Position numbers and translations under genes: made by a program
DNA from: an uncultured archaeon
Lineage (GTDB): Archaea > Nanobdellota > Nanobdellia > Woesearchaeales > UBA583
Length of the DNA stretch: 20,301 nucleotides
Assembly: GCA_937138345.1 (NCBI GenBank)
Contig: CAKZOW010000036.1
Span: 1 to 20,301, forward strand
Direction of reading: 5' to 3'
Notes under the pieces: model-generated
Seen by the model: only the letters and a program-made list of their open reading frames with translations
What the model was told of the DNA's origin: nothing
Database searches by the model: none
Shown: positions 59-20,301 of the stretch, piece after piece
How the letters are laid out: every line of letters begins with the position of its first letter
Numbering within the stretch: position 1 is the stretch's first letter

Positions 59-81
59 TAAATATAATAAACTAGAAACCC

Positions 82-162: not shown

Positions 163-600
163 ATGACACAGAAAAAAGATAAAATTCAGGCAATTGTATA
201 TAGAAAAAATTCCCAAAGTATTGAATACTTAGCACTTAGAAGAACAAAAGAAAAAGGAAATATCTGGCAACCAGTAACTGGTAATAGAGATCCACAAGAT
301 ACAACTATCTTAGAATGTCTTAAAAGAGAATTAGAAGAAGAAATAGGTATTAAAAACATGTTAAAAATAGAAGAAATACACCAATTTACTTACAAAGGGT
401 CTGGGTCTAAAAAAGGTATCGAGTTTAATGAAATAGTTTTTGGCGTAGAAATTGAAACATCACAAAAAATTATTTTACAAAGTGAACCCTACATCGAACA
501 TGAAGATTATCTATGGACAAGCTATGATGGAGCATTTGAACTCTTTGATTTTGTAGAACAAAAAGAAGCATTAAATAAGTTACATAAAAAATTATCTTAA
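163..600 (+). CDS. Nudix hydrolase (variant Nudix box)
   Basis: 145-aa ORF with the motif G-NRDPQ-D-TTILECLK-RELEEEIGI. The REUxEExGU core is intact. There is a D at the first Glu position and 8 spacer residues instead of 7. TATA-like TTAATATATAT at 134-144 lies ~24 nt upstream of the ATG. Confidence 0.75.
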   Translation: MTQKKDKIQAIVYRKNSQSIEYLALRRTKEKGNIWQPVTGNRDPQDTTILECLKRELEEEIGIKNMLKIEEIHQFTYKGSGSKKGIEFNEIVFGVEIETSQKIILQSEPYIEHEDYLWTSYDGAFELFDFVEQKEALNKLHKKLS

Positions 601-3080: not shown

Positions 3081-3101
3081 ACAAATATTCAAAAAAAATA
3101 C

Positions 3102-3110
3102 TTTATAAAA
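3102..3110 (-). promoter_or_regulatory. TATA box (TTTTATAAA on minus), possible internal promoter for the 134-aa/697-aa gene pair
   Basis: Centred 26 nt upstream of the ATG at 3080, in the 73-nt gap after the 1007-aa gene. Confidence 0.35.
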
Positions 3111-3153
3111 TAATATAAAAACTAATTAGGAGTATAAAAATAAACTCTATAAT

Positions 3154-6100: not shown

Positions 6101-6177
6101 AAAAATACAAACAAAACAATAATTATAATCATAATAATGATAAAAATACTTATTTGTGCTCTTTTTGCTAACTTCAT
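3154..6177 (-). CDS. Giant (1007 aa) secreted/surface protein with prepilin-like (class III) signal peptide and Cys-rich C-terminus; function unknown
   Basis: The ORF track gives 3154-6222. The ATG at 6177 (MKLAKRAQISIFIIIMIIIIVLFVF..) sits 1 nt after the stop (6179-6181) of the upstream gene. The N-terminus has RA|QISI followed by a long hydrophobic run. There are 20 Cys after the signal, 8 of them in the last ~120 aa (..GKCADNNPDPYNYNCYEYVGSCPIGVPSYPDLYGRCS). The N-terminal module resembles that of the 697-aa protein. Confidence 0.6.
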   Translation of the reverse strand: MKLAKRAQISIFIIIMIIIIVLFVFLFSFSSDSEINRINSGESLAGAQSSNFESFREEITFCFENSVEKSLLLASARGGLIYDENARDQVYGYGAYFDDYQQGVLSPYRIYTDEVQVYTKLSSSGHISITSLDATLPSGSMIMPGYHNQFQEYILNSIFDCVDFSSYENLDLIREKKQVTTKVISKLSSSELLLEEFEGETGNELFLEIGDQVFEGTLRIDNGEYIGDFSSSSVDFSLQTNFNNYIIINKELSVYVDLDFNRESLYGTFYYPVVFDERNVAVSSLETSIEIPTRYVDLLKASRNLIMEKVQNRTLDLTDPVDLSRANSGFIDDISVSKTIISNEPEYKKYLFTIEDYQTQYLGTPQQFHFLYENYAPFLEFSEASYCYRVEGTSCTILFTPGDRITLDFLDITYPFEQIDVHSLNFQEMSQITSRSEFTLQANGSLSFLGNTDGLFSYEFTLTDGESFSTYQIKFLSGSIENINNEDARSCFDIYAEGADDTTYGYYPIATDFRGVGTSQTIFDGFDVDGSRKLPYTYILTPDYKPYFPLYDGIGERPNWRIKVRESCVEDPDFYSVEWSDDLGLFPTEDQPILQEQVLQSYATPSDSSFISQPYTVSAQIKDLSGNIVGDPLKIRIYPTQCMGPEIDSSGFSCCDTQTLFDHSTKNYINERETISLTSTFARDSSFNFNMFFGVLLNTGGTFDLDTNELVGYSEVDIWDKYGTDVTSLYQGDVYGTCKLLPRWQHNVESITGSGSTVNLGEVIKLDFFQSPVKNIVYSDDSLVGSDRDPFTLSLSYVAQSTSSCQFGVVSNYSFMTTFKPNEDDTFQLVAGWNSSGGLETIPDSAEFSNIRFLCDDEWRGYGGSVNDDFRDYSSVTSWNITNTYISKGFCAPDTSQCILADHSINHNTWENPREQTMIQGGVCTQTRMRSDKQLDSQYRPGLHFFKDINVSCVDPIARTYISTETFNLHGKCADNNPDPYNYNCYEYVGSCPIGVPSYPDLYGRCS

Positions 6178-6178
6178 T

Positions 6179-6937
6179 TTACTTTTTTTTGAATGCAGGT
6201 TTAAATATAAAAAATAACACAACTACAAAAAGTACAAAAATTAAATAAGTAAGATAATGAGTTCCTTCACTTTCTCTAATTTCTACTCCAAAGTCATTTC
6301 TCTGGTCTGGAGAAATATTTTTTTTAATAGTATAGTTAATCTCAGTTGGAATTTTCTCAACATTCCATGCAATAAGAGGATTTGACTCTAAAATCTCAAA
6401 AGGTAACTCACTGATAATATATTGATCCTTATTTTCTTCATCTAAATAAGAAATAACTTCACCCGGGATATCTGAGAGAACTCTAACATGTTCCCCCTCA
6501 CCTTCAATAAATAACGTAATTAGAGTACCTTCATCAACTTCTTTAAACGAAAATGTTGAAGTAATACCTTCAAATTGAGAAAATTTTTGATTAGAAACAT
6601 AAACTATTGAATCTTCATACTCCAATATTCCAACAAAATTGTAATTACCATCCCCTTGTATTTCAATAGGACAAATAACCTTACCATAAATACCTTCAAT
6701 TGAATCAAAAACCTGAGTACAACTCTCATCAAGTAGAAGTTCATCATTGAGAAATGTCTGTATATAAAATTTTGATCCACTCTCAATGAGTCCATAATTA
6801 AAACCAAAAGCAACTTGGAGAGTATCTCCAGACTCAATTACATATAATGTTTCAACAGGTCCTTGTTCCTGAGCTACTAAAGAAAACAATAGTGAGAGAA
6901 AACATAAAACAAAAATACTAGTTTTTTTAAAATTCAT
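6179..6937 (-). CDS. Secreted protein (252 aa) with Sec-type signal peptide and C-terminal membrane anchor; function unknown
   Basis: The N-terminus is MNFKKTSIFVLCFLSLLFSLVAQ|EQG.. . The C-terminus is ..LTYLIFVLFVVVLFFIFKPAFKKK, a hydrophobic helix with a basic tail. The mature part has 2 Cys. It is the first gene of the co-directional cluster. Confidence 0.6.
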   Translation of the reverse strand: MNFKKTSIFVLCFLSLLFSLVAQEQGPVETLYVIESGDTLQVAFGFNYGLIESGSKFYIQTFLNDELLLDESCTQVFDSIEGIYGKVICPIEIQGDGNYNFVGILEYEDSIVYVSNQKFSQFEGITSTFSFKEVDEGTLITLFIEGEGEHVRVLSDIPGEVISYLDEENKDQYIISELPFEILESNPLIAWNVEKIPTEINYTIKKNISPDQRNDFGVEIRESEGTHYLTYLIFVLFVVVLFFIFKPAFKKK

Positions 6938-6959
6938 AATAGTAAATTGAAAAAAATCT

Positions 6960-6967
6960 TTTTAAAA
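6960..6967 (-). promoter_or_regulatory. TATA box (TTTTAAAA) for the surface-protein cluster
   Basis: Centred ~26.5 nt upstream of the ATG at 6937, implying a leaderless transcript. Confidence 0.4.
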
Positions 6968-7181
6968 TTTTTTCACTCATGTGCAGCAAGACATCATAAA
7001 AATGTGGTAAAAATAAAAAAAGAATCTATCTAAACCATAAGATATATAAATTATTATAAACTAAATTTACTAGATTTAACAATTAAAAATCTGATTCTTA
7101 CAATAATTTAATAATTATTGTTTTAGCATATTATGAAATATGAACATATTTTGAGAGAAAAAATCAAAATACTAATAAAAA

Positions 7182-7640
7182 ATGACTGACAATTACAGAG
7201 AAAATGTTGCAGCCATTATTATCAACAAAGATAAAAAAGTCCTTATGTGCGAACATGTATGGATTGATAATGCGTGGCAATTACCTCAGGGAGGTACAGA
7301 AGAAGGTGAAGGTAAACAAGAAGCTTTACTAAGAGAACTAGAAGAAGAATTAGGTACTAAGAGTTTCAAAGTTTTAGGACAAATGGAAGAACCACTTAAG
7401 TATAAATTTCCTTACTATTTAAGAGAAAAATACCAATTTGATGGACAAATCCAAACATTTTTCCTACTTGAATTCACAGGAGATGATTCAGAAATTAGAT
7501 TTGACAATCAAGAAAAACCAGAGTTTAAAGCATTTGAGTGGGTAGATTATGAAGAGCCACCAATTAGAGTAATTTATTTCAAAAAATTATCTTATCTCAA
7601 AGCAATAAATTATTTCAAAGAGCAAGTTGATCAATTATAA
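7182..7640 (+). CDS. Nudix hydrolase, RppH/NudH-like
   Basis: Canonical Nudix box GGTEEGE-GKQEALL-RELEEELG. The N-terminal YRENVAAIIINKDKKVLMCEH..WQLPQGG resembles RppH/Ap4A-hydrolase-type Nudix proteins. Confidence 0.8.
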   Translation: MTDNYRENVAAIIINKDKKVLMCEHVWIDNAWQLPQGGTEEGEGKQEALLRELEEELGTKSFKVLGQMEEPLKYKFPYYLREKYQFDGQIQTFFLLEFTGDDSEIRFDNQEKPEFKAFEWVDYEEPPIRVIYFKKLSYLKAINYFKEQVDQL

Positions 7641-7693
7641 TCAACTCATACTTTATTCTAAAAAATAAATAAAAAAAAAAAAGAGTAATTTTA

Positions 7694-8242
7694 CTATCCT
7701 ATAAAATAAATTGCTGCCCCTATTAAAAGGAAAAAAGCAACAATACCTAGTAATTCTGAATCAATATAAAAGTTTTCAAACCAGGAAGTATCTTGTTCTT
7801 GATTAGTAATATCATCAACACCAGTATTAAATTCCGTATTTACATCATAGGGGTTTTGCTGGGGTTCATTTAAGTCATATGCATTATTGAGACCAAAAAA
7901 CCCTTTAAGCAAAATAATCAAAAAAATTAACCCAATTGCACCAAATACGACTTTTTTGTTAACCATCCCTTGTGCTTCAGAAATAGGAATTCCTAAAAAT
8001 ACTAGTAAAATCCCTATACAAAACACAATAATAAAAATAATCATAAACCAAGTAACAGCATAAGATACAACATATGTCAAAATACCTGTAAAAGAAACAA
8101 TTAATATTGATAAAAAAGAAATCAATGCCGCAACTTTATCATTACCCACAAAAGCCATTTTTTTCAATGTCATGTAAACAATTGCATAAAGCATAATTCC
8201 TACAATAATCATTTTCCAAAAATCACTAAATAAAAATTCCAT
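7694..8242 (-). CDS. Polytopic membrane protein (about 5-6 TM), function unknown
   Basis: The ORF track gives 7694-8302. I prefer the ATG at 8242 (MEFLFSDFWKMIIVGIMLYAIV..), which removes the overlap with the divergent gene and places the palindromic TATA 26 nt upstream. The protein has several long hydrophobic segments. Confidence 0.5.
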   Translation of the reverse strand: MEFLFSDFWKMIIVGIMLYAIVYMTLKKMAFVGNDKVAALISFLSILIVSFTGILTYVVSYAVTWFMIIFIIVFCIGILLVFLGIPISEAQGMVNKKVVFGAIGLIFLIILLKGFFGLNNAYDLNEPQQNPYDVNTEFNTGVDDITNQEQDTSWFENFYIDSELLGIVAFFLLIGAAIYFIG

Positions 8243-8260
8243 AGTAAATTCTTGCCACGT

Positions 8261-8274
8261 ATATTTATAAATAT
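8261..8274. promoter_or_regulatory. Perfectly palindromic TATA element ATATTTATAAATAT shared by two divergent genes
   Basis: The 14-bp perfect palindrome is centred at 8267/8268. That is ~26 nt from the minus-strand ATG (8242) and ~26 nt from the plus-strand ATG (8294). Confidence 0.45.
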
Positions 8275-8293
8275 TTCTTACTTTAAATTTACT

Positions 8294-8728
8294 ATGAAAC
8301 ATCTCTCAGGCAAAGATAAAAAAGAACTCAATACTAAGTTAAATCCAGAATATCAAGTCGATAAAAAAGAAGAAATTATTGAAACAAAGGAAGGTATTCT
8401 TCTAAAAGATAAAGTCCCATATCTTATTAAACTCGAAGATTCTAGTTACATTCCACATTTAAAATCAATTATTGAAAATACTTTCCCAACAATATATATT
8501 GACAATGGTGCGATTCCTTTTCTTCTCAAAGGTGCAGATATGATGAGACCAGGAATTGAAAAAATCGAAGGAGAATTCAAAGAAAATGAGATAGTTGCAA
8601 TTAAAAATTTAAATTATCCTAAAATAATAGGAGTTGGTAAAGCATTGCTAAACTCTCAAGAAATGAATTCCCAAGAAAAAGGTAAAAGTATTAAAGTACT
8701 ACATTACATAAAAGATCAATATTACTAA
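8294..8728 (+). CDS. PUA-domain RNA-binding protein (pre-PUA + PUA, MCT-1/Tma20-like archaeal family)
   Basis: I use the ATG at 8294 (MKHLSGKDKKEL..) rather than the track start at 8252. The PUA signature reads ..IYIDNGAIPFLLKGADMMRPGI..ENEIVAIKN..PKIIGVGKALLNSQEM....KGKSIKVLHYIKD. Confidence 0.7.
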   Translation: MKHLSGKDKKELNTKLNPEYQVDKKEEIIETKEGILLKDKVPYLIKLEDSSYIPHLKSIIENTFPTIYIDNGAIPFLLKGADMMRPGIEKIEGEFKENEIVAIKNLNYPKIIGVGKALLNSQEMNSQEKGKSIKVLHYIKDQYY

Positions 8729-9063
8729 CTACAATTAAGATTATATTTCTTTTCTAAATACTCTTTTTGTAGTTCCCATGAAAATAATAATGTTTCTTCA
8801 GCAATTCTTGTTACAAACTTAGAAAATTCTTCAGGATTAATAATATTTTTTTCTTTTGCCTTTTTCAAAGAAGCTTCTCTATAGTATTCAACGAGCTTTA
8901 ATCTTCTTTTAGGATCTGAGATTATTACTTCTCCACCTTCTGCTAATGCATACTTCGCATCAGCCAAATAAGAAGATAATTCAAAACGTTTTACAAGCAA
9001 ATCTAAAATTTTATGATCTAGAATTTCTAGCTCTTTTTTTACATTTAAAATTTCTGTAGGCAT
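8725..9063 (-). CDS. Chorismate mutase-like (AroQ-fold) small protein
   Basis: The 112-aa ORF aligns by eye with archaeal AroQ chorismate mutases. VKKELEILDHKILDLLVKRFELSSYLADAK matches IRKKIDEIDNKILKLIAER..L...V.EIK; SDPKRR matches NDPERE; ..LQKEYLE matches ..LQKQYLE. The first conserved Arg appears to be Lys. Confidence 0.5.
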   Translation of the reverse strand: MPTEILNVKKELEILDHKILDLLVKRFELSSYLADAKYALAEGGEVIISDPKRRLKLVEYYREASLKKAKEKNIINPEEFSKFVTRIAEETLLFSWELQKEYLEKKYNLNCS

Positions 9064-9084
9064 AAAAGTAAAAGTGTGACTCGA

Positions 9085-9093
9085 TTTATAAAA
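9085..9093 (-). promoter_or_regulatory. TATA box (TTTTATAAA on minus) for the chorismate-mutase-like gene
   Basis: Centred 26 nt upstream of the ATG at 9063. Confidence 0.4.
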
Positions 9094-9131
9094 TGAAAGG
9101 TTTTCTTTTTATAACATCCTAACAATAGATA

Positions 9132-9139
9132 TTTAAATA
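9132..9139 (+). promoter_or_regulatory. TATA box TTTAAATA for the 175-aa ORF/endA unit
   Basis: Centred ~24 nt upstream of the ATG at 9159. It has the same TTTAAATAC sequence as the element upstream of rpl7ae. Confidence 0.4.
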
Positions 9140-9158
9140 CCTAAGAATAATTAGTTCT

Positions 9159-9686
9159 ATGAAAAAAGAGCAAGTATTCAATTACATAGGTTCATTAGTA
9201 TTTGTAAGTATTATACTACTCTTTTTATTTTCTCTAGTTTTTATTAGTAGGTTTGCTCTTGATGACACATCAGGATTACAAGAATATGTAGAATCAACAA
9301 AAATTCTTTTAGAGGAAATTGATGAAGTGCAACAACAAGTATCAAATACCTCTTCAAATCCTACAAGAATTGATTTGAAAAATCTACATGTATTTGATAG
9401 TTCCTATGATATTGTCGATGGTTCATATAAAAACATAAGAGACGAAGGTGCATTTTTTACAATAAAATTTAATTCTACAATTACTGAAAATGAGAAGTAT
9501 TTTATTTTAGAAGTAGACAAAGAATTTGATTATGTGAAAGGACAAAGAATTATTTATCTAAATAATGAAGGAATTGTATTAGAAAATGAAGAAAATAGCT
9601 TAGAAGTATATGATTTAGAGACAGCTAGAATTGGGACTATCAACAAACAAGACATAGAAGGAGTGATTATTTATGAAAAGAATTAA
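9159..9686 (+). CDS. Hypothetical protein with a single N-terminal TM helix
   Basis: 175-aa ORF beginning MKKEQVFNYIGSLVFVSIILLFLFSLVFISRF.., followed by an acidic soluble part. It overlaps endA by 14 nt, so co-transcription is likely. No family recognised. Confidence 0.5.
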   Translation: MKKEQVFNYIGSLVFVSIILLFLFSLVFISRFALDDTSGLQEYVESTKILLEEIDEVQQQVSNTSSNPTRIDLKNLHVFDSSYDIVDGSYKNIRDEGAFFTIKFNSTITENEKYFILEVDKEFDYVKGQRIIYLNNEGIVLENEENSLEVYDLETARIGTINKQDIEGVIIYEKN

Positions 9687-10185
9687 TAAAGTAACATTTG
9701 TAAATAGACAATTTCAAATTGAGAGTGAAGCTGACTTTAAATCACTTCAAACAAGAGGATATGGATATCAATTAGGAAGTATATACTTACTATTTCCTTA
9801 TGAAGCTGCATATCTACTTGAAATTGGAAGAGTTGAAATTAAAAAGAAAAATAGTACATTAACAATTAGTGAAGTATTATCATTAAAAGAAATCAATACA
9901 TTAGAATATCAAGTATATAAAGATTTAAGATCCAAAGGATATTATTTAGGCTCAGGACTAAAGTTTGGTTGTGATTTTAGGGTCTATGAAAAAGGACATA
10001 AAAAAGATGAATCTCACTCAAAGTGGCTTGTAAAAATCGTCAAAGATTCTCAAAAACTCTCATTTAAAGATTTCGCATCAAATATTCGTGTAGGGCATTC
10101 TACTAACAAAAAAATGCTCTATGCAATTGTTGATTTTGAAGGATCAATTAGTTATTATGAAAGCGATTGGGTAAATATTGTATAA
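9673..10185 (+). CDS. endA: tRNA-splicing endonuclease (tRNA-intron lyase), short homotetramer-type subunit
   Basis: The segment ..YQVYKDLRSKGYYLGSGLKFGCDFRVYEKG...DESHSKWLVKIV......F...IRVGHSTNKKMLYAIVD..GSISYY aligns closely with Methanocaldococcus EndA (YLVYKDLRTRGYIVKTGLKYGADFRLYERG..KEHSVYLVKV..VRVAHSVRKKLLIAIVD). The catalytic Tyr, His and Lys are present. Confidence 0.9.
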   Translation: MKRINKVTFVNRQFQIESEADFKSLQTRGYGYQLGSIYLLFPYEAAYLLEIGRVEIKKKNSTLTISEVLSLKEINTLEYQVYKDLRSKGYYLGSGLKFGCDFRVYEKGHKKDESHSKWLVKIVKDSQKLSFKDFASNIRVGHSTNKKMLYAIVDFEGSISYYESDWVNIV

Positions 10186-10279
10186 AGCTTCATAATCTTT
10201 ATAAACAGCATCTGATTAATTTTACTAGAACTTCAATCAGTTGAGGTTTATGATACTATAACCTTCGTTAAAAATGGTA

Positions 10280-10328
10280 CTCTATTTTGATTACATCAAA
10301 ATGGAGCTCAAAAAAACTTAGTTTTTTT
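10280..10328 (+). terminator. Two hairpins plus a T7 tract downstream of endA (putative terminator or structured RNA)
   Basis: The first hairpin is 12 bp, CTCTATTTTGAT-tac-ATCAAAATGGAG (10280-10306, one G-U pair). It is followed by AAAAAAAC-tta-GTTTTTTT (10310-10328), which ends in a run of 7 T. Archaeal termination typically uses oligo-T. Confidence 0.35.
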
Positions 10329-10338
10329 GTTGCATTTT

Positions 10339-10346
10339 TTTAAATA
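10339..10346 (+). promoter_or_regulatory. TATA box TTTAAATA for the rpl7ae-rps28e-rpl24e operon
   Basis: Matches the consensus-like archaeal TATA (TTTAWATA) and is centred ~23 nt upstream of the ATG at 10365. Confidence 0.5.
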
Positions 10347-10364
10347 CGAAGTATTTTAAAAAAA

Positions 10365-10751
10365 ATGGTAGAAATCGATGAAAAACAAGCTTTTTCAATT
10401 ATTCAAAAAGCTAAAGAAACAGGAAAGATTAAAATCGGTGCTAATGAAGTAACAAAAGCACTTGAAAGAGGACAAGCTAAATTAGTTGTTGCTGCAAACG
10501 ATGTATCACCAGCTGAAATTGTTGCACACTTCCCAGGACTTTGTTCAGAAATGAATGTAGTTTACACACAAGCAGGATCAAAAGCAGAATTAGGATCACT
10601 AGTTCAAATCAAATCAACTACAGCATTAGCAGTTGTTGACGCTGGTTCAGCTAAAAAAGAATTAGACACATTAATTAAAGAATTAAGTGCTGATAACAAA
10701 GAAGAAGTTAAAGAAGAAGCTGCTCCTGCTGAAGAAACAAAAGAGGAATAA
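10365..10751 (+). CDS. rpl7ae: 50S ribosomal protein L7Ae (K-turn binding), with an acidic/Lys-rich C-terminal tail
   Basis: The segment ..KAKETGKIKIGANEVTKALERGQAKLVVAANDVSPAEIVAHFPGLCSEMNVVYTQAGSKAELGS.. matches the L7Ae core (..GKIKKGTNETTKAVERG.AKLV.IAEDV.P.EIVAHLP.LCEE.NVPY..V.SK..LG). Confidence 0.9.
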   Translation: MVEIDEKQAFSIIQKAKETGKIKIGANEVTKALERGQAKLVVAANDVSPAEIVAHFPGLCSEMNVVYTQAGSKAELGSLVQIKSTTALAVVDAGSAKKELDTLIKELSADNKEEVKEEAAPAEETKEE

Positions 10752-10755
10752 ACTC

Positions 10756-10773
10756 ATTCACAATTTTGTGAAT
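10756..10773 (+). other. Intercistronic inverted repeat ATTCACAA-tt-TTGTGAAT between rpl7ae and rps28e
   Basis: An 8-bp perfect inverted repeat within the 35-nt spacer. Its function is unknown. Confidence 0.25.
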
Positions 10774-10786
10774 AACATAATACAAA

Positions 10787-11038
10787 ATGGCTAAAAAAGA
10801 CAAAGGATTAGACTTTTCCGAGAGTATTCCTGGTATTGTTGAGAGTATTGTTGGTAATGCTTCAGCAAAAGGAGGAGTAACTCAAGTTAGAGTAAAAGTT
10901 CTTGCAGGAAGAGATGAAGGAAAAATCATCACTAGAAATGTTAGAGGTCCAATTAAAGTTAACGATGTGTTAATGATGACTGAAACAGAATACGAAGCAA
11001 GAAAAATTTTCAAAAAAACTAAAGGAGGAGCTAAATAA
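10787..11038 (+). CDS. rps28e: 30S ribosomal protein S28e
   Basis: The segment ..[45 protein letters not shown] matches the S28e signature (..EVTQVKVR.L.GRD.GR...RNVKGPVR.GDIL.L.ETEREAR.L). Confidence 0.9.
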
Positions 11039-11040
11039 AA

Positions 11041-11232
11041 ATGGCACCATGTAGTTTTTGTGGAAGTGAAGTTAAAAAAGGATCAGGAAAGTTATTTGTA
11101 AAAGATAATGGAACTGTACTTACATTTTGTTCATCAAAATGTGAAAAAAACATGTTAAAATTAGGAAGAGATGCTAGAAAACTTAAGTGGACAAACCACT
11201 TTGTTAAAGGAGAATCTCCTGCTAAAAAATAA
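11041..11232 (+). CDS. rpl24e: 50S ribosomal protein L24e (zinc-ribbon type)
   Basis: [51 protein letters not shown] is the typical L24e pattern CxxC...G.G..FV..DG....FCSSKC. GGAGG lies inside the end of rps28e, ~10 nt upstream of the ATG. Confidence 0.9.
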
Positions 11233-11258
11233 TTGACTAATTTAGTCAATACTTTTTT
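11233..11258 (+). terminator. Hairpin TTGACTAA-t-TTAGTCAA followed by a T6 tract, terminator of the r-protein operon
   Basis: An 8-bp inverted repeat starts immediately after the rpl24e stop. TTTTTT follows at 11253-11258. Confidence 0.45.
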
Positions 11259-11676
11259 CTAAAAATAAAAAATTACTCAAAAATTGTAATTATACTATCT
11301 TTGAGCTTAATTCTACGTCTGGAAGTAGGTCTTACTTTAACTTCACTAGTAAAGGGGTTTGTTGTAGAGAAAATCATTGTAAGTATATATGGTATTCAAA
11401 CTATTTAGATTTAATGATATTACTGGAAAAAACACTAAAAAAAGTGTTACTAATAAAATACAGCAAAGATGTTTTCATAACTCGTAGTAATCAAACTAAT
11501 ACAATTAAATTCTGTAAATAATTGATACTCTATAGCATTAGAGAAGTCAAAGGTCTATGAGTTTTGAGAATTTATAATATCCAAAACAATCAAAAAACAA
11601 GATTTTTTGACATACTTAATTTATCCATTGATAATTTTAAGTATTACATAAATCAAAGATTTATGAATATCACGTC

Positions 11677-13848
11677 TCATCCATTGATGATACGTAATAT
11701 TTCATCACCATACTTTGCAATTTTACTCTCACCAAGTCCAGTAATTTGATACATCTCCCCTTTATTTTGTGGCATAACTTTTGCAAGACCTTCAATTGCA
11801 GAATTAGATAATATCATATAGGCAGGAATTCCTCCCATAGACTTTGCTTTCTCAATTCTCCATTCTTTAAGCATTGTAGCCAAAACACTAGAATTACCGG
11901 TAGAAAGAGAAGAACATTTAGGTTTAGCATAAGAGAAAAGAGAAGTATTTTGTTCCTTAACTTTTGCATACTTTAACATAAATGAATTAATAAATTTTGA
12001 TTTATTTCCCGTGTAAGTAATTACTAATTTTGATTTTGCTCTAGAAAGTGCAACATAAAACAATCTCAATTCCTCATCATTTTTATTGTAATTGTCTGAT
12101 TGTTTTACTAAATCAAATACAAAGTTATCTTGTACTTTATTTGGAAAAGATAAAGAATTACAAGAAACTAAATAAACTTCCTCAGCCTCCATTCCCTTAA
12201 TAGAGTGTATTGTAGCTAACGTAACACCTTTTAGTTCTTTTGAATCTCTCCCACTAGACTCGTCTGTTTTTATAGTATATTCAATTCCTTGTTGATCAAA
12301 TAAATCAGCATAAGATTCTAAAACTTTATTTGTTCTTGCAAGTACAAATATCTCCTCCTTTGGAGTATTTGAATGTTTAATTGCCTCTAAAACAAATAAT
12401 TTCTCAATTTTTTCACTTTGCTGTTCAAATAAAAATATTTTATCATCTTCTGGATTCTCACTAGACTTCCCAGCAATCAAATTTGGTAATTTCATCTCTT
12501 TTATAGAATGATTAAAAAAATCAACTATTTTTGGGTCAGATCTATAATTTTGTTTTAAAGAAATAACTTGAGTATCCTTAAACATGTTTGGAAAAGTTAA
12601 AATATATTCAATCTCAGAACCCCTCCAACCATAAATTGCCTGTCTTGGATCTCCTACTGCAAAAATATTTGGTGCATTAAGATGTTTAATCAAATCTAGT
12701 TGAGGTAGATTAATATCTTGAAATTCATCAACTAAAATATATTCAAATGACGGTAGAGTATGTTTAAAATGAGAAAATAAAACATTACAATCTAAAATTT
12801 GATCTGTAAAATCTCTTAAACTCTTCTCTTTTAATTCTTTATGTAAACAAGTTACTATTGTATGAATAACTCCTGCAACTCTTTTTTTAGAAGGGTTTTT
12901 TTCTAAAGTATGAAACTCAGTAATAGATTCTACCTTATTTTTAAAATAATCTAAAATTGCAAAAATATCTCTAATAAATAGGAAGAATAATTCATCATTT
13001 GATCTCTCCCTTAATTGTTTTCTTGTAAAATAAATATCTTTAATATGATCAAAAAAGATACCTTGTTTTTGCATAATTGATCTAACAAGTGCAATTTTAT
13101 CCTTAAATGTAACAACCCTTGAGGGTTTTGAGTAAATTAATGAACCGTGTTTTTTTAATTGTTTTTCAGCAAATGAGTTAAAAGTCTCAACATAAACTGA
13201 AGTAATACCTAGCGATGCTAGACGTTTTGCCATTTCTTCTTTAGCTTTTTTAGTAAAAGTAATTGCTAAAATTTTTTCAGATTTAACTCCTCTAAATTTA
13301 GTTAAAAATTCAATTCTTTTTGTAAGAACAGTTGTTTTTCCAGAACCTGCTCCAGCTACACATAAAATACTTTGTTTGGGAGAAATAATTGCTTTTTTTT
13401 GTTCATCATTAAATGTATTTAAAAAAAAATCAAATTGTTTAAAGAGTACTCTATCTTCGGAAGTAATATCTTCACCATCAAGAAGATTAGTTTTGAGTTG
13501 AGAGTGATTTTTTGGTTTTTCTTCTTTGTATTCAAACTTTCTCTCAAATATTTCCTTAACTCCAAGACTTGTTCTTTGTAAGATTTTAAAATATCCTTTT
13601 TGAACTTCTTCTAAATATCCTGAAGAGATTAATTGATCAACTAAAGAAGAAATAAGAGGTACATCATGTTTAAATAAACATCCATAAGAATTATACTCAT
13701 CTAAATTATGTTTTTCAATTGTTGGGTTTAAATCTCCTTTAATATAAGTAATAAAAGTAACTTTTCCAAGCATAAATGGGAGGTCATCAAAAGCTTTCAA
13801 TAAAGGCAAATGTAGTTGAGAATAAGGATTTTCTTGAACTTGTTCCAT
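11677..13848 (-). CDS. SF1 UvrD/Rep-family DNA helicase with N-terminal RQC-like winged helix and C-terminal HRDC-like domain
   Basis: SF1 motifs are present: VAGAGSGKTTVLTKRI (Walker A/motif I), LVDEFQDIN (II), GDPRQAIYGWRG (III), QNYRS (IV), TIHSIKGMEAEEVYL (V) and YVALSRAKSKLVI (VI). The N-terminus, ..FMLGKVTFITYIKGD....I.KHNLDEYNSYGCL......LISSLVDQLISSGYLEE, follows the RecQ RQC pattern. The C-terminus, GIPAYMILSNSAIEGLAKVMPQNKGEMYQITGLGESKIAKYGDEIL, follows the HRDC pattern. Confidence 0.8.
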   Translation of the reverse strand: MEQVQENPYSQLHLPLLKAFDDLPFMLGKVTFITYIKGDLNPTIEKHNLDEYNSYGCLFKHDVPLISSLVDQLISSGYLEEVQKGYFKILQRTSLGVKEIFERKFEYKEEKPKNHSQLKTNLLDGEDITSEDRVLFKQFDFFLNTFNDEQKKAIISPKQSILCVAGAGSGKTTVLTKRIEFLTKFRGVKSEKILAITFTKKAKEEMAKRLASLGITSVYVETFNSFAEKQLKKHGSLIYSKPSRVVTFKDKIALVRSIMQKQGIFFDHIKDIYFTRKQLRERSNDELFFLFIRDIFAILDYFKNKVESITEFHTLEKNPSKKRVAGVIHTIVTCLHKELKEKSLRDFTDQILDCNVLFSHFKHTLPSFEYILVDEFQDINLPQLDLIKHLNAPNIFAVGDPRQAIYGWRGSEIEYILTFPNMFKDTQVISLKQNYRSDPKIVDFFNHSIKEMKLPNLIAGKSSENPEDDKIFLFEQQSEKIEKLFVLEAIKHSNTPKEEIFVLARTNKVLESYADLFDQQGIEYTIKTDESSGRDSKELKGVTLATIHSIKGMEAEEVYLVSCNSLSFPNKVQDNFVFDLVKQSDNYNKNDEELRLFYVALSRAKSKLVITYTGNKSKFINSFMLKYAKVKEQNTSLFSYAKPKCSSLSTGNSSVLATMLKEWRIEKAKSMGGIPAYMILSNSAIEGLAKVMPQNKGEMYQITGLGESKIAKYGDEILRIING

Positions 13849-13870
13849 AGTAAATTCTCTCGATTTTTCT

Positions 13871-13880
13871 TTTTAAATAT
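13871..13880 (-). promoter_or_regulatory. TATA box (ATATTTAAAA on minus) for the helicase gene
   Basis: Centred ~27 nt upstream of the ATG at 13848. Confidence 0.4.
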
Positions 13881-13903
13881 TTGGCATTAAAAAAGTAGAA
13901 TTA

Positions 13904-14890
13904 TTAACAAGAATTCTTATTATGAAGCAACTGCATATACAAAATATAAGATATCGTTAAGATAATTACTTTAATTAATGTTGATATATCAATTAAATAA
14001 ACAACTACTAAAATTATAGTAAACAAAATCATCCTAACTAAAGGAAATGATAGAAAACATTTTGGAGTATTTGCATAATAAATAAGACCATAAGAAATAA
14101 AAAATAACAAAGGACCTACTAAAAGAAAGTGTGAAAATACATCCTTATCAATTGCAATTTTAAATCCAGTTGCTAAATAAAGTAAACTAATATAAAATAT
14201 CATATGAGTATATGAATAATAATGGCCACTACCAAAAACTTTACCGTGAATTTTCTCTTCTAGAAAAGGAAAATACTTCCTAGCAATAAACATAACAATC
14301 CCCACTCCTAAAATAAAATAAATACTATTGTTAAGAGTTATTTGAGTTGTATTGAAAATAGTACTTGTCGATAAAATCATCTCCCCTAGCATAATAATAG
14401 TTAAAAGACCTAATCTCTCAGGTAGATGAGTAGAACTCACCGGAATTGATCTTAATTTATTTCTAAAAAAAAGAGGTGCCAACAAATCAATTAATGATGC
14501 AACAATCCAAAATATCAATACGTAGTCTGTGTATCCTGAGATTATCCATAAAAGAGAAGAAAATAAAAGGACAGATGAGAGGGATGAGAATCCATTCCCG
14601 GAAGTAATTTCTGAATATCTTTTCATATAACAAAGCGATAGTACAAACCTTGAAATACCATAAATTAATCCAAAATAGTAGATAATATACTCTTCAAAAC
14701 CAAGTAAAACAGTAATAAATAGAATGGAGAAAATTTGAGTTATTGTTAATACATGATAGAGAGTATCAATTTTTGGAAATCTAGTTGTAAACATAACATG
14801 TCCCATCCAATTGAGGAGAATTGGAATAAATAACAACATAAAAAATAATGTTGAATCAAAAGAATATGTTTCTTTAAGTAAAATAGATAA
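13904..14890 (-). CDS. LtrA-family (low temperature requirement A-like) polytopic membrane protein, N-terminally truncated at the composition break
   Basis: This is the AT-rich C-terminal 328 aa of the 1002-aa ORF. ..LLFIPILLNWMGHVMFTTRFPKIDTLYHVLTITQIFSILF.. fits the LtrA pattern (..WW.W....W...RF..DD...R.L...QM..), and about 8 further TM segments follow. The expected first ~50 aa of the family (ELFFDLVFV-type helix) are missing. An internal ATG at 14839 could give a shorter product. The boundary is approximate (+/-30 nt). Confidence 0.5.
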   Translation of the reverse strand, partial: LSILLKETYSFDSTLFFMLLFIPILLNWMGHVMFTTRFPKIDTLYHVLTITQIFSILFITVLLGFEEYIIYYFGLIYGISRFVLSLCYMKRYSEITSGNGFSSLSSVLLFSSLLWIISGYTDYVLIFWIVASLIDLLAPLFFRNKLRSIPVSSTHLPERLGLLTIIMLGEMILSTSTIFNTTQITLNNSIYFILGVGIVMFIARKYFPFLEEKIHGKVFGSGHYYSYTHMIFYISLLYLATGFKIAIDKDVFSHFLLVGPLLFFISYGLIYYANTPKCFLSFPLVRMILFTIILVVVYLIDISTLIKVIILTISYILYMQLLHNKNSC

Positions 14891-16912
14891 TCCCCCAGTC
14901 TTGTGACCAAAAATCACATCAGATTTGCCGTCTCCAGTAATATCAGACCCGGCTAAGCTTACATTGCTTGTATATAAAAAGATACTATCAACCGTACCCG
15001 CACTTGTTCGACTACTTGGGTCTATATCCGTAACCATGTATAGGTACCCCGAACCTGTACCTACAAACAAATAATCTTTTCCATTTTGCTGGTCAATAGC
15101 CCCGTTGGAGTCAAGACTTATCATGAATGGGGACAAATACCCGTTACGATATTTTTCGGAGTAAACCCCGGCAAACCCATTGGTTCTTGAGGTGGTGATT
15201 GATGGGTCAAAATCAGGAGCAGATGTAGTACCTACGTTTTCATATAGCACTAGTTCAGGGGTTTGACTGCCAACAATCAAATCCAGTTTACCGTCTTTAT
15301 TCACATCGAATAATGCTGGACGGATTTCATTACCAAAAACACGATTAGAAAAAGGTGTTGTTTTAAGGCTGAAAAGGCAGGAATCGGATGGGTTAGAAGC
15401 CTGATTTTCATAATAGTAAAGTTTTCCCGACTCGGTTCCAATTAGCAAATCGATATCTCCATCATTGTCTAGGTCTCCGGCGGCAGGGCATAGGCCTGTA
15501 TCAAAAGCACTGGGAAGGAGCAAGTAGTCTCTTGTAATTAGAGTGTACGCAGGGTCGGTTTTTGTTCCGGTATTCTTGTAATAAGCAATTCTACTTTCAT
15601 AAGTTCCTATTCTTGAAAAGACTCCACGATTCCCAACAAGTAAGTCATTCAATGAATCACCATCTACATCAATTAGAAGAGGGTGTGCGTTGGTTCCCAA
15701 ATCTATCATATCCTTAAATAGGAAATCATTGCCTTGATACTGAAGTGAAGCGTTATTATTTGACCCGTTATTTTTATACAGCTGGGCGCCATTAATATTA
15801 TCGAAACCAGCTTCCGCATTTGGAGAGGCAATCAGGTCTTTTACCCCATCATTATCCACATCAACATAATAGGCTGCTGGAAATGTTTGAACGTCAACTG
15901 ATGTATTATTTCTTGGGTAGGCCGTGTCTTGACTGGTTAATCTGGCATCCGCCAAGGTTCCATTATTATAGGCCATTAGCAGGTTATTGTAGGAAATATC
16001 TCCCAAAATTAAATCAGGTAAATCGTTACCATCCATATCCTGAATTAGTATGGTTGAACCTTCGTGCCGGCTTCCTCTTCCATTAGATATTGGGTTGCTT
16101 TTGTTGAGAGGAATAGCCCCGCCTTTACAACTACCGAAATAGAGTTGGAATGAAAAAGCATCTTCAATAAAATGTCCCCAGCAAGTGGATTCTAAGTCAA
16201 ATATTAGGCTATCATTATTGCCGTTGTTTTCTTGGCTTAGGTTTTTGTAATAGGTTATTGAGTTCGCCCCGCTTCCAAAAGCTAGAATATCCATGTCACC
16301 GTCACCATCAATGTCAGTTATTCCTGGTATGTCAGTAAACCCATTATATACGTCGGTGTATATAAACCCACCTTGTGGGGGGTAATATTTGTACGTAATA
16401 AAATCTACATACTGGCCTGCCTTAAAAGGACTGTTGTATTTAATTGGTAAGAAGGAAAAATCATTTGGCGCTGGGCCAGTCGATGTATTTTTAAACACTT
16501 TAATATCTCCAAAATTGGGAACAGCTGAAAAAATATCTTTTTTCCCATCTCCATCAAAGTCACGTAATAGTGCGAAGTCGGTCATTTTTGGGAAACCAAT
16601 TTCATAGTCGAAACTGTAGTCGTAACCAATTGTGTCTTTTTTTCCCTGATTGATGAAAGTGCGGACGCATTGTCCGTCTCTATCAAAAATAAAAAGGTCA
16701 TCTATTCCGTCTCCGTTTAAATCAATGTCAGAAAATTGTGGGGTGTTCAAACCACCAACCCAAGGAAAGGCATATTCAGTACCAAATGCTTTTACAGATA
16801 CTGAGTCGTACCTACCATACGTTTTTAGGTCAACATTCTGAGCGTAAGAAGATGTTAGTAGTCCAAATAGAACGAGAGTTGTTGCGGGTAAAATAAGTTG
16901 TAGTTGTTTCAT
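14891..16912 (-). CDS. FG-GAP/VCBS repeat (integrin-alpha-like beta-propeller) secreted protein, C-terminally truncated at the composition break
   Basis: The N-terminal Sec signal is MKQLQLILPATTLVLFGLLTSSYA|QN. At least 9 Ca-binding repeat cores of the D-x-[DN]-x-D-G-x-x-D type are present: DLNGDGIDDL, DFDGDGKKDI, DIDGDGDMDI, DVDNDGVKDL, DVDGDSLNDL, DLDNDGDIDL, DVNKDGKLDL, DITGDGKSDV and others. GC is ~40% and codons contain CpG. No C-terminal sorting domain is left. Confidence 0.7.
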
Positions 16913-16916
16913 ATTC

Positions 16917-16924
16917 CAAATATA
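16917..16924 (-). promoter_or_regulatory. Bacteroidota-type -7 promoter motif TAnnTTTG (TATATTTG)
   Basis: Plus-strand CAAATATA is TATATTTG on minus, ending 4 nt before the ATG of the FG-GAP gene. That is very close and would imply a leaderless or near-leaderless mRNA. Confidence 0.3.
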
Positions 16925-17007
16925 ACGTTACGTAATAAGATTTGGTTTACCCCGTTTGCCAATCTACAATTTCAATTTTTTAATTGAACCTCACGTTCGA
17001 TAAAATA

Positions 17008-17015
17008 TACTTTTG
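17008..17015 (+). promoter_or_regulatory. Bacteroidota-type -7 promoter motif TAnnTTTG (TACTTTTG)
   Basis: Ends 9 nt upstream of the ATG at 17025. Confidence 0.4.
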
Positions 17016-17024
17016 CGTCCAGTT

Positions 17025-17756
17025 ATGAAAAAACGCCTATTACTTCCTTTGAGTACACTTTTACTGGCTTCAGTATCATTGTTTGCACAAGAAACTGAAA
17101 AACAGCCCGAAAAAAAAGAGGAGAAAAAAGTTAATAGTGATTCCAAGGTTGCTAATCGTCCAATTAAAAGGGATAATTTTTTAATTGATATTAATTACGC
17201 TGGTGTGGTTAACGCGCCTACTGGTGTCAATTTTAGTTTTGGGTATGGAAACGACATTCAAATTTTCTACGACCATCAATTTAAAGCTAAGGTGTTAAGT
17301 GGTGCTATTGGAATTGGATATTCCCATGCAAAGTATTTCAACAATGGTTACACTACGAATGTTGATACCGCAACTGGACTTGAATATGCGTCTTTTGCCC
17401 CAATAAAAGCTGATTCATCCTACAAAAGGAATTCATATACAACTAATTACTTCGATGTACCCGCTGAGTTGAGGTTCCGGTCAAAACCTAATGATAAAGG
17501 CCATAGCTGGAAGGTGTCTGTTGGTTTCAAGGCGGGCTTCAGACTAGGTTCTTACAGCACAACAAGAACAGAAGAAGGTAGATATAGCAATTTCATTCAG
17601 CCATTACTTACGCAAACTCGATACGGAATTACCACACGATTGGGTTACGGTAGAATTGGTTTAGTCGGTTATTACAGTCTTACACGATTGTTTGAGGCTG
17701 AAAAGGGACATGAGATATTGCCCTTCTCAATAGGGTTCACCATTTCACCCTTCTAG
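17025..17756 (+). CDS. Small outer-membrane beta-barrel protein (Bacteroidota OMP_b-brl/PorT-like family)
   Basis: I use the ATG at 17025 (MKKRLLLPLSTLLLASVSLFA|QE, a Sec signal) rather than the TTG at 17013. The protein has alternating aromatic/hydrophobic beta-strand patterning, is rich in G/Y/S/T, and ends in a terminal Phe (..GFTISPF) typical of OMPs. Confidence 0.6.
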   Translation: MKKRLLLPLSTLLLASVSLFAQETEKQPEKKEEKKVNSDSKVANRPIKRDNFLIDINYAGVVNAPTGVNFSFGYGNDIQIFYDHQFKAKVLSGAIGIGYSHAKYFNNGYTTNVDTATGLEYASFAPIKADSSYKRNSYTTNYFDVPAELRFRSKPNDKGHSWKVSVGFKAGFRLGSYSTTRTEEGRYSNFIQPLLTQTRYGITTRLGYGRIGLVGYYSLTRLFEAEKGHEILPFSIGFTISPF

Positions 17757-17757
17757 G

Positions 17758-18153
17758 CTAGGCTTGCACCAGTTCAGGTAAAGCCTCCTTTATTGAATCA
17801 ATAATTGAATTGTGATCCGTAGGTTTTTGGAAAAACTGGTCAAAGCCAAGGTTTTTATAATATTCTTCATCTTCTGGTAATCCAACCCCAGTAATAGCCC
17901 AAATTTCAGCGGATTCGTACATAGAATCTTTTCTTAGTTCTTCCATTACCTCGGTTCCGTCCATACTGTGATCTAATCTAATCTCTGTAAGGATTAAATC
18001 GAAATTCTTTTTATGTGCAAAGTGCAATGCCTCAACACCATTTCTGGCAACAGTCAAGTGAAATTGTTTTCCAATCATTTTTTCCATGACAAAGATGTTT
18101 ACCTCGTCACTTTCAACTAATAGTACTCTAACATTTGGGTGAATAGCAGCCAT
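17758..18153 (-). CDS. Stand-alone response-regulator receiver (CheY-like) domain with degenerate phospho-acceptor pocket
   Basis: 131 aa. Receiver hallmarks are VRVLLVESDE.., ..NFDLILTEIRLDHSMDG.., ..IWAITGV.. (Thr) and ..FFQKP.. (Lys). Glu sits where the phospho-acceptor Asp is expected, and Ser replaces the second acidic-pocket Asp. Confidence 0.7.
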   Translation of the reverse strand: MAAIHPNVRVLLVESDEVNIFVMEKMIGKQFHLTVARNGVEALHFAHKKNFDLILTEIRLDHSMDGTEVMEELRKDSMYESAEIWAITGVGLPEDEEYYKNLGFDQFFQKPTDHNSIIDSIKEALPELVQA

Positions 18154-18172
18154 AACAATAATGTATATAGCT

Positions 18173-18180
18173 CAAAACTA
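18173..18180 (-). promoter_or_regulatory. Bacteroidota-type -7 promoter motif TAnnTTTG (TAGTTTTG)
   Basis: Plus-strand CAAAACTA. The motif ends 19 nt upstream of the receiver gene ATG (18153). Confidence 0.4.
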
Positions 18181-18251
18181 GCCGAAGAACCAGTGTTTTT
18201 TATAGGTATAGGGTTACTACTTATTCACCCGCAACTGTTAATGGTTGAGGG

Positions 18252-18767
18252 CTAAATTCTACCCATTTGACCCTTAAGCATTTTGATTTGGTCGTTAAGT
18301 AACTTGGCCTTGTCGTGTTTTTTAGCTTGAGCTATATAATTCAGCGCTTCACGTTTTCTTCTTTTAGCCATTGCTATTCCTGCCAGGTTTAAGTTAGCCA
18401 TTGCAATATCATGACCCATACTAAGTCCTGTATTCAACGCTTTTTTAAAGTGCTTTTCAGACTTTGTCATTGCATTACTCTGGCTTTCAACTAATCCTTG
18501 CAAGAAATAATGATACGCACGCTGTTTTGTTGGCATTTGCTCCGGTTTCTTTACCCAGGCTAGTATTTTTCTTGCGCTATCAAATTTATTTCTGCGCACT
18601 TGCAAGAAGGCAATTAGGTTCACTTCATGCTTAAACAGTAACAAAACTACTAGACCTACTAATAAAATGAACATTATGCCATTTCCAATGTGTCCTTGGT
18701 AAAATTCGTAGGCTACAAGAGCGGTAAGCAGAGCAATTAAAACAAACTTTATTATTCGATTAAGCAT
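18252..18767 (-). CDS. Membrane protein with two N-terminal TM helices and a TPR-like helical C-terminal part; function unknown
   Basis: I prefer the ATG at 18767 (MLNRIIKFVLIALLTALVAYEF..GIMFILLVGLVVLLLF) because a TAnnTTTG motif lies 20 nt upstream. The C-terminal helices (..AYHYFLQGLVESQSN..KHFKKALN..ANLNLAGIAMAKRRKREALNYIAQAKK) look TPR-like. Confidence 0.55.
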   Translation of the reverse strand: MLNRIIKFVLIALLTALVAYEFYQGHIGNGIMFILLVGLVVLLLFKHEVNLIAFLQVRRNKFDSARKILAWVKKPEQMPTKQRAYHYFLQGLVESQSNAMTKSEKHFKKALNTGLSMGHDIAMANLNLAGIAMAKRRKREALNYIAQAKKHDKAKLLNDQIKMLKGQMGRI

Positions 18768-18787
18768 GGTACTAATTTTTAGGATTG

Positions 18788-18795
18788 CAAAAGTA
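18788..18795 (-). promoter_or_regulatory. Bacteroidota-type -7 promoter motif TAnnTTTG (TACTTTTG)
   Basis: Plus-strand CAAAAGTA. The motif ends 20 nt upstream of the ATG at 18767. Confidence 0.4.
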
Positions 18796-18828
18796 CGTGG
18801 AATGAAACGCCCACCCAACTAGAACCAT

Positions 18829-20301
18829 TTATTTATAATTTGCTAACGCTTCTGCAAATTTTCGGTCGTTAGATAACCGCGGAATTTTGTTCTGTCCACC
18901 CAATTTTCCTCTCGATTTCATAGCATTTAAAAAAGCATCAGGTTGTAATTCTCTAATAGTTAAGGGTCTTAAGACCTTGCCAGCAATTAAATCTTTGTAG
19001 TACGGGTTTTGTTCTTGAAGGGCTCTATCAATAGCACCTTCCAGTTTCGTTAGGTCTTTAGGCTTTTCTTCAAACTCGATAAACCACTCGTGGTAAGGTA
19101 GGCCAGAACCTGGGTTTATTTGTGGCGCTACATGAAACTCTTTAGTGATACAATCCTCTTCTTCAGTTCCAATTTTCATTGCCATTTCTACTTCTTCTCC
19201 GATTACATGCTCGCCAAACGCTGAAGTAAAGTGTTTAATTCTACCCGTAACTACAATTCTGTATGGGTTCTTTGATACAAACTTTACGGTATCGCCAATT
19301 ACGTAACCCCATAGACCAGCATTGGTGTTTAAAACGATAGCGTAATTCACTCCCAACTCTACTTCAGTTAGCTGCAATCGTGTCGGGTTTTCTTTGCCGT
19401 ATTCCGCAGTTGGAATAAACTCATAGAATATTCCATTATCCACAACTAGTAATAAACCGCTATGGGGCTGTTCATCCTGAAAGGCAATAAACCCTTCAGA
19501 CGCGGGGTAGGTTTCTACGGAAGGTATATTCGACCCAATGAGTTTATTAAATATTGGACGGTAAGGTTCATAGTTTACGCCTCCATAGACAAATAATGAA
19601 AAGTTTGGGAAGATGCTTTCAATGTTTGGTTTTCCCGATTTTTCAATAAGTTTTTCAAAATACATCTGAACCCAAGATGGAATTCCACTAATGAGCCTTA
19701 AATCTTCATGTTCAGTTTCCTCAACAATTTTATCCACTTTGGTCTCCCAATCTTCGATACAATTGGTTTTTAAACTTGGAAGCCTATTTTTTTGGAGGTA
19801 AGCAGGTACATGATTCGCAACAATACCGCTGAGTCTCCCTAGTTTCGCCCTCCCTTTTGTTTCTAAAGCAGGACTACCTTGCAGAAAAATCATTTTACCA
19901 TCAACAAAAGAGGCGTTGTTTGATGCAACAATATAGTGAAGCAGTGCAAGTTTTGCGGAGTTAATGTGGTTGCTTATAGACTCTTTAGAAATGGGAATAT
20001 ACTTTGCCCCAGAGGTAGTTCCTGAGGTTTTGCAGACGTAAATGGGGTATCCTGGCCACAATACATCAGACTTTCCTTCCATCATTTGGTTGATATAAGG
20101 CTGAAGCTCTTCGTATTCCCTTAAAGGAACGTTTTTCTTAAAGGTCGTATAATCGTTTATTCCATCAAACTTATGGTCATTACCAAAGATTGTTTTTTTA
20201 CCAGTGATAATTAGGCTTTCAAAAACAAGCTGTTGCGATTTGGCAGGATGCAAAACAGCCTTTTTGGACTTTCGTACCAAAAAGGCTGCATAATGTTTTG
20301 C
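18829..20301 (-). CDS. Bacterial GH3-family (auxin-responsive-promoter/JAR1-like acyl-adenylate-forming) protein, 5' end beyond the right edge
   Basis: GH3-like motifs are ..VCKTSGTTSGAKYIPIS.., ..FVYGGVNYEPY.., ..YPASEGFIAFQD.. and ..YVIGDTVKF... . The reading frame stays open upstream of the track's TTG (20280) to the window edge (..AKHYAAFLVRKSKK..), so the N-terminus is incomplete. Confidence 0.75.
   Translation of the reverse strand, partial: AKHYAAFLVRKSKKAVLHPAKSQQLVFESLIITGKKTIFGNDHKFDGINDYTTFKKNVPLREYEELQPYINQMMEGKSDVLWPGYPIYVCKTSGTTSGAKYIPISKESISNHINSAKLALLHYIVASNNASFVDGKMIFLQGSPALETKGRAKLGRLSGIVANHVPAYLQKNRLPSLKTNCIEDWETKVDKIVEETEHEDLRLISGIPSWVQMYFEKLIEKSGKPNIESIFPNFSLFVYGGVNYEPYRPIFNKLIGSNIPSVETYPASEGFIAFQDEQPHSGLLLVVDNGIFYEFIPTAEYGKENPTRLQLTEVELGVNYAIVLNTNAGLWGYVIGDTVKFVSKNPYRIVVTGRIKHFTSAFGEHVIGEEVEMAMKIGTEEEDCITKEFHVAPQINPGSGLPYHEWFIEFEEKPKDLTKLEGAIDRALQEQNPYYKDLIAGKVLRPLTIRELQPDAFLNAMKSRGKLGGQNKIPRLSNDRKFAEALANYK

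Follow-up and report, generated by a model that had tools for sequence, protein, structure and literature searches.

Contig comparison points to assembly of an archaeal and a bacterial genome across a 21-bp shared string as the probable source of an in-frame FG-GAP–LtrA open reading frame

Chimeric contigs are known to arise from k-mers that different genomes have in common (review PMC7299287). De Bruijn inter-genome chimeric contigs (PMC7299287) consist of two collinear blocks from different organisms that meet at a short exact string of a common k length, and they show a step in base composition, parents that are intact elsewhere and a junction that is not reproducible. The stretch of DNA analysed here (contig CAKZOW010000036.1 of assembly GCA_937138345.1, 20,301 nucleotides, hereafter the window), in which a minus-strand open reading frame (ORF) of 1002 codons joins FG-GAP repeats to an LtrA domain, is alike in all these respects. 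It differs from most described chimeras, where long conserved stretches, for example ribosomal RNA (rRNA) genes or mobile elements, connect related strains or species, in that its two blocks come from different domains of life, meet at a chance 21-mer and keep the reading frame. The window is the whole contig, because the hybrid product is recorded on one 20,301-bp contig.

Each half of the ORF has a described counterpart. Residues 1-680 are those of P0001, a protein resembling the FG-GAP/VCBS proteins of Bacteroidota that are sorted by the type IX secretion system (T9SS; PF13517 with PF18962), with a signal-peptide-like N-terminus followed by FG-GAP repeats. Unlike those proteins, the window copy lacks the Por_Secre_tail (PF18962) that is present, together with FG-GAP repeats, in all of its best 120 relatives (700-920 residues each), and it is a truncated copy, not a variant. 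The named relatives belong to Crocinitomicaceae, Flavobacteriales, Fluviicola and other Bacteroidia. Residues 675-1002 are identical to the corresponding part of a 355-residue LtrA (low temperature requirement protein A, PF06772) of Nanoarchaeota, but in the window copy bacterial sequence takes the place of the first 27 residues, or about 20 profile positions. Documented inter-domain transfers into DPANN archaea likewise place bacterial-type sequence beside archaeal genes on one contig; real transfers, however, bring in whole genes, recur in several genomes and have diverged somewhat from the donor, and none of this holds here. The features that define the join are as follows.

Positions 1-14870: archaeal segment (Nanoarchaeota, DPANN), assigned by Pfam matches to EndA, L7Ae, S28e and L24e and by matches to Nanoarchaeota contigs.
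Positions 14892-20301: Bacteroidota segment (Flavobacteriales/Crocinitomicaceae-like), assigned by contig identity and named FG-GAP relatives.
Positions 13904-16912, minus strand: hybrid ORF P0250, 1002 residues, present in the sequence and almost certainly artefactual as a gene.
Positions 14873-16912, minus strand: FG-GAP part, the first 680 codons of the 784-residue FG-GAP/T9SS-sorted protein P0001 (identical 680-residue prefix).
Positions 13904-14890, minus strand: LtrA part, the last 328 codons and the stop codon of the 355-residue archaeal LtrA P0241 (identical 328-residue suffix).
Positions 14871-14891: junction block, a string of exactly 21 bp, TCTTTAAGTAAAATAGATAAT, that is identical in the two parents and contains the crossover.

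Each half of the window continues collinearly in a different genome. The archaeal counterpart, L001, is ENA contig ERZ650160 NODE_3009 (16,091 bp), which was found by exact-protein look-up of the helicase; the bacterial counterpart, L002, is part of a 644,733-bp contig of ERZ928167, which was reached by exact-protein look-up of the response regulator. In BLAST comparisons, window positions 7601-14891 match L001 with 99.78% identity (13 mismatches and one 3-bp indel, none of them less than 2.1 kb from the break), and window positions 14871-20301 match L002 with 100% identity over 5,431 bp. The archaeal part is also 100% identical to L015 and L017 over their overlap with the window, and six more contigs, including one of NCBI assembly GCA_041253975.1, match it at 92-99% identity. 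The bacterial segment is 100% identical also to L003, L012, L004, L005 and L006. Past the shared block, L001 runs on for 8.8 kb (29.7% G+C) and encodes an intact 355-residue LtrA, the RFC small subunit and a GCD14-type methyltransferase. The corresponding part of L002 (38.5% G+C) encodes an intact 784-residue FG-GAP protein with its Por_Secre_tail, DAHP synthase/chorismate mutase and heme-synthesis genes. The initial annotation, made from the sequence of the window, had preferred a metagenome assembly chimera, and the collinear continuation of each half in a different genome supports that preference. The check that it had named against horizontal transfer, whether the two halves map to separate genomes, placed the left half on Nanoarchaeota contigs and the right half on a Bacteroidota contig.

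The L001 alignment runs as far as 14891 and the L002 alignment sets in at 14871, giving an overlap of exactly 21 bp. The parents share no 22-mer, and outside the block their flanks are unrelated (12/60 and 18/60 identical positions). Among about 24 kb of archaeal and about 20 kb of bacterial sequence, this 21-mer is the longest common string, the next independent one being 16 bp long. Both parents read TCTTTAAGTAAAATAGATAAT in the same strand and frame, in which it encodes LSILLK, and in the hybrid ORF the FG-GAP prefix (residues 1-680) and the LtrA suffix (residues 675-1002) overlap accordingly. An AT-rich string does follow ..GGGGGA on the minus strand, as had been noted from the sequence. 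It is not exclusively archaeal, however: together with the final A of the preceding string, its first 20 bases make up the shared block.

Both genes are incomplete in the window. Pfam places FG-GAP repeats in the N-terminal two thirds of the 1002-residue ORF and LtrA at residues 676-983, with a score of 129.6 bits (cut-off 31.9) and a match that covers only profile positions 21-348 of 356. The FG-GAP copy had been described as lacking any C-terminal domain, and P0001 indeed has 104 more residues, including the Por_Secre_tail. Truncation of LtrA at its N-terminus was likewise correctly recognised, but the loss amounts to 27 residues by comparison with P0241, not to about 50. The LtrA cluster has ten members, nine of 355 residues and one of 337, and those with names are proteins of 'Nanoarchaeota archaeon' metagenome-assembled genomes. 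A natural architecture that combines FG-GAP and LtrA was considered and rejected: none of the best 120 FG-GAP matches (0/120) and none of the 120 listed LtrA matches (0/120) contains both domains.

TCTTTAAGTAAAATAGATAAT has a G+C content of 14% and five matches in 596 Gb of GTDB genomes. The flanks of all five are unrelated to the window, to which they have no BLAST match, and because these contexts are unrelated the 21-mer is taken as a chance sequence and not as a mobile element or a conserved site. For genomes of 1 Mb and 4 Mb with these compositions, about 12 shared 21-mers are expected by chance; for the archaeon against a gigabase-scale community or a whole metagenome, the expectation is thousands. 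As signs of integration, a tRNA, repeats flanking the junction and an integrase or transposase among the Pfam matches were looked for, and none was found. The in-frame join is a coincidence, with a chance of roughly 1 in 6 given strand and frame, and is no evidence for a real fusion.

The intact and hybrid configurations are distributed among the available assemblies as follows.

Intact archaeal junction: L001/L014 (ERZ650160), L015 (ERZ928327 = ERR2094169), L016 (Logan ERR2094168) and L017 (ERZ928167 = ERR2094168).
Intact bacterial junction: L002, L003 and L012, and four similar places.
Hybrid junction: this window only.

At the compared loci that carry the 21-mer, the flanks are either both archaeal (L001/L014, L015, L016, L017) or both bacterial (L002, L003, L012). 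In nine of nine archaeal contigs at the site, the alignment to the window stops at 14887-14891, though the contigs run on for 150-2,850 bp, and in the bacterial contigs that reach the site (L002, L003 and L012) it begins at 14871. The intact ltrA locus is present on at least 10 contigs from independent samples. Both intact parents occur together in runs ERR2094168 (ERZ928167) and ERR2094169 (ERZ928327) of study PRJEB22134, which sampled aquaculture systems in Shandong, China (PMC9710629). Coverage values in the contig names, which come from different samples, are 11.7x and 11.4x for the archaeal sequence in ERZ650160 and 2.3x for the bacterial sequence in ERZ650164. For the hybrid, an exact look-up of the 1002-residue product among encoding contigs returned nothing, and a protein-cluster look-up then placed the product, which is on record in NCBI and ENA, on a single 20,301-bp contig. 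The proposed check for the same junction in other assemblies yielded none, the 51-nt junction string having 0 matches in GTDB species genomes and 0 in JGI metagenome contigs.

The composition of the window changes at the same point. The hand counts of the initial annotation around 14880 are exact on recount (14761-14880, 25.8% G+C and 0 CpG; 14881-15000, 40.0% G+C and 4 CpG), and the abrupt archaeal to Bacteroidota-like switch that it had placed inside the 1002-residue ORF is borne out by gene content and by the G+C change point. A single G+C change point fitted by maximum likelihood to all 20,301 bases lies at 14891/14892, where the log-likelihood ratio reaches 90.6; when 100-bp blocks were shuffled 500 times, the ratio averaged 5.1 and did not exceed 13.9. 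No comparable internal break is present in either side alone (log-likelihood ratio 8.8 for the left and 3.1 for the right). Positions 1-14890 have 28.7% G+C and a CpG observed/expected ratio of 0.26, and positions 14891-20301 have 38.7% G+C and a ratio of 0.80. In G+C, CpG ratio and tetranucleotides, each half agrees with the sequence of its own parent beyond the break. Specifically, the tetranucleotide comparison that had been suggested gives correlations of 0.98-0.99 between the left half and L001 and of 0.93 between the right half and L002, versus 0.87 between left and right across the break.

We conclude from these sequence comparisons that the window is very probably a de Bruijn-graph chimera of two unrelated genomes that share a 21-bp string, and that the 1002-residue 'fusion protein' is almost certainly not a real gene. 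The two parents, their intact configurations, the 21-bp block and the restriction of the hybrid to one contig are direct observations. A de Bruijn-graph origin is favoured because the overlap is 21 bp long, and 21 is the lowest k that metaSPAdes (21, 33, 55) and MEGAHIT (k-min 21) use by default. Iterative assemblers begin at small k and pass contigs on as pseudo-reads for larger k, and we infer an error at the k = 21 stage of such an assembler. In the proposed sequence of events, a low-G+C archaeon of the Nanoarchaeota (DPANN; window 1-14891) and a Flavobacteriales-like bacterium of the Bacteroidota (window 14871-20301), both present in the same samples, carry TCTTTAAGTAAAATAGATAAT by chance. 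At k = 21 the string would collapse into one graph node, entered by two paths and left by two; the assembler would have come in from the archaeal side and gone out to the bacterial side, and the wrong join would have persisted into the final contig set. The fictitious ORF runs on uninterrupted because TCTTTAAGTAAAATAGATAAT falls within a gene of each parent and is read there in matching strand and frame.

One consideration weighs against a graph chimera formed at k = 21. A 21-bp repeat is normally resolved at larger k by modern metagenome assemblers, and this reading therefore requires some further circumstance, such as a gap in local coverage. The value k = 21 is taken from general assembler defaults, and the case as a whole is built on the comparison of contigs.

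Other origins of the join were weighed against the same evidence. An in-vitro chimeric molecule, formed by template switching at the 21-bp microhomology during library amplification by polymerase chain reaction or during whole-genome amplification and then faithfully assembled, is very unlikely. Short microhomologies are preferred sites of template switching, the 21-bp block is shared cleanly by the parents with nothing inserted, and both templates are present in the same samples; however, an overlap of exactly the default assembler k is more simply a graph effect, and template-switch fragments are rare and would normally be outnumbered by the intact paths, which every other assembly recovered.

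It is extremely unlikely that the two contigs were merged after assembly, whether by overlap merging, scaffolding, 're-assembly' of a bin or accidental concatenation at submission. In favour of a merge, the contig is recorded under both NCBI and ENA, possibly within a processed bin, and the junction has no N gap. Merging tools, however, usually require overlaps well above 21 bp, and plain concatenation would neither land on a string common to both parents nor drop one copy of it.

A very recent inter-domain recombination, in which a Nanoarchaeota subpopulation took at least 5.4 kb from a co-occurring Bacteroidota by microhomology-mediated illegitimate recombination inside ltrA, is extremely unlikely. 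The two organisms occur together in the same samples, illegitimate recombination typically leaves junctions with microhomology, and the join is in frame, but a frame-preserving join arises by chance in roughly 1 in 6 cases. Over 5,431 bp the bacterial part shows 100% identity to the donor, both genes break off in mid-domain, no integrase, tRNA or flanking repeat accompanies the junction, and a second junction is not seen. Furthermore, the hybrid is on one contig only, versus the intact ltrA locus on at least 10, its junction is absent from the GTDB and JGI sets, and the intact loci of both parents are repeatedly recovered from the same samples.

Deliberate concatenation, as for a test set, which the initial annotation had listed, was rejected as unlikely: the 1002-residue product is a public record in NCBI/ENA on one contig, and the join removes one copy of the shared string.

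The genes to the left of the break had been read as archaeal (EndA, L7Ae, S28e, L24e, 5S), an assignment that Pfam and Rfam confirm by matches to a tRNA-intron endonuclease, L7Ae, S28e, L24e, a PUA protein and a partial 5S rRNA. Two of the archaeal features are located as follows.

Positions 1-61, minus strand: a 5S rRNA gene that runs off the contig start, leaving its 5' half (40 bits to Rfam RF00001; positions 1-60 of the 120-position model).
Positions 11677-13848, minus strand: helicase of 723 residues (RQC, UvrD core and HRDC by Pfam), the native downstream neighbour of LtrA.

A contig start within a 5S rRNA gene is a typical repeat-induced contig end. In the more distant archaeal relatives L013 (NCBI assembly GCA_036146255.1) and L018-L021 (four other samples), the gene order is EndA, L7Ae, S28e, L24e, helicase and a 355-residue LtrA, and RFC comes next after LtrA wherever the contig reaches far enough; in L020 and L021 the intact 355-residue LtrA sits at the contig end. 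The helicase adjoins LtrA in L001, L013 and L018-L021. In it, a UvrD/Rep superfamily-1 core is preceded by an RQC-like domain at the N-terminus and followed by HRDC at the C-terminus; RQC and HRDC are RecQ accessory domains, here placed on a UvrD-type motor, and the gene is the neighbour of ltrA in every Nanoarchaeota relative seen. The locus from NUDIX to LtrA recurs with 92-99% nucleotide identity on L018-L024, from seven further samples that include a TARA sample and GCA_041253975.1, and because of this recurrence the Nanoarchaeota lineage appears widespread.

The differences between the window and L001 are real strain-level variation, with one fast-evolving small gene: 10 of the 14 cluster at 7678-8024, in or beside a gene for 182 residues (7691-8239, minus strand) that has no significant Pfam match, while the three in the helicase gene are all synonymous. 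No second chimeric join was detected in the archaeal part, where the internal log-likelihood ratio of 8.8 lies within the shuffle range, and position 7601 of the window, where L001 ends, is bridged by the independent contigs L019, L020, L022, L023 and L025.

Three consecutive archaeal ORFs on the minus strand, at 592-2730 (712 residues), 3154-6222 (1022 residues) and 6179-6937 (252 residues), have no Pfam match, and the same three are carried by L020, L022 and L025. The 712- and 1022-residue products are Cys-rich and start with K(R)AQ and a hydrophobic stretch (KAQTTIFILISLVIVIIGAF; KRAQISIFIIIMIIIIVLFVF). These starts resemble an archaeal class III (type IV pilin-like) signal, and the two products may be large surface proteins of the Nanoarchaeota lineage.

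To the right of the break, where the genes had been described as Bacteroidota-like, the 100% match to a Bacteroidota contig and the named FG-GAP relatives among Bacteroidia uphold the description. Besides an AimR/TPR-like protein (Pfam), this side carries the following genes.

Positions 17013-17756, plus strand: outer-membrane beta-barrel protein, 243 residues in the parent (Pfam), the native divergent neighbour of the FG-GAP gene.
Positions 17758-18153, minus strand: response-regulator receiver protein, 131 residues (Pfam).
Positions 18829-20301, minus strand: GH3-family gene (Pfam), cut by the contig end, 497 residues in the parent.

The exact response-regulator product occurs on nine contigs, all of them in bacterial context. 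Two contigs, L004 and L005 (ERZ650164 and ERZ928254), end within 2 bp of each other at 17148-17150, in the outer-membrane beta-barrel gene, which suggests that this is a strain-variable or low-coverage point of the bacterial genome. TAnnTTTG is the Bacteroidota -7 promoter motif, and it does stand 5-30 nt upstream of four bacterial gene starts, as had been pointed out (16924, minus strand; 17008, plus; 18180, minus; 18795, minus). As a distinguishing mark of the bacterial side it did not hold up: the motif is weak evidence and a poor discriminator because it is frequent in the AT-rich archaeal part too, where it occurs 26 times.

The window offers no FG-GAP–LtrA fusion protein and no evidence of inter-domain transfer, and the join is almost certainly not a biological feature. 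If it were a true recombinant, it would be a snapshot of inter-domain transfer, and possibly of a physical association, before amelioration, in marine or aquaculture Nanoarchaeota. As a worked example, it illustrates that a chance 21-mer shared across domains suffices for an in-frame chimera, and that such joins can be diagnosed without reads, by means of independent assemblies of the same community. The only practical step that follows is to split the contig at 14871-14891 in the databases and to flag the record of the hybrid protein. As they stand on record, the chimeric contig and its fictitious 1002-residue product could end up in a genome bin as contamination, give rise to a false domain architecture in protein databases and inflate estimates of horizontal transfer into DPANN archaea.

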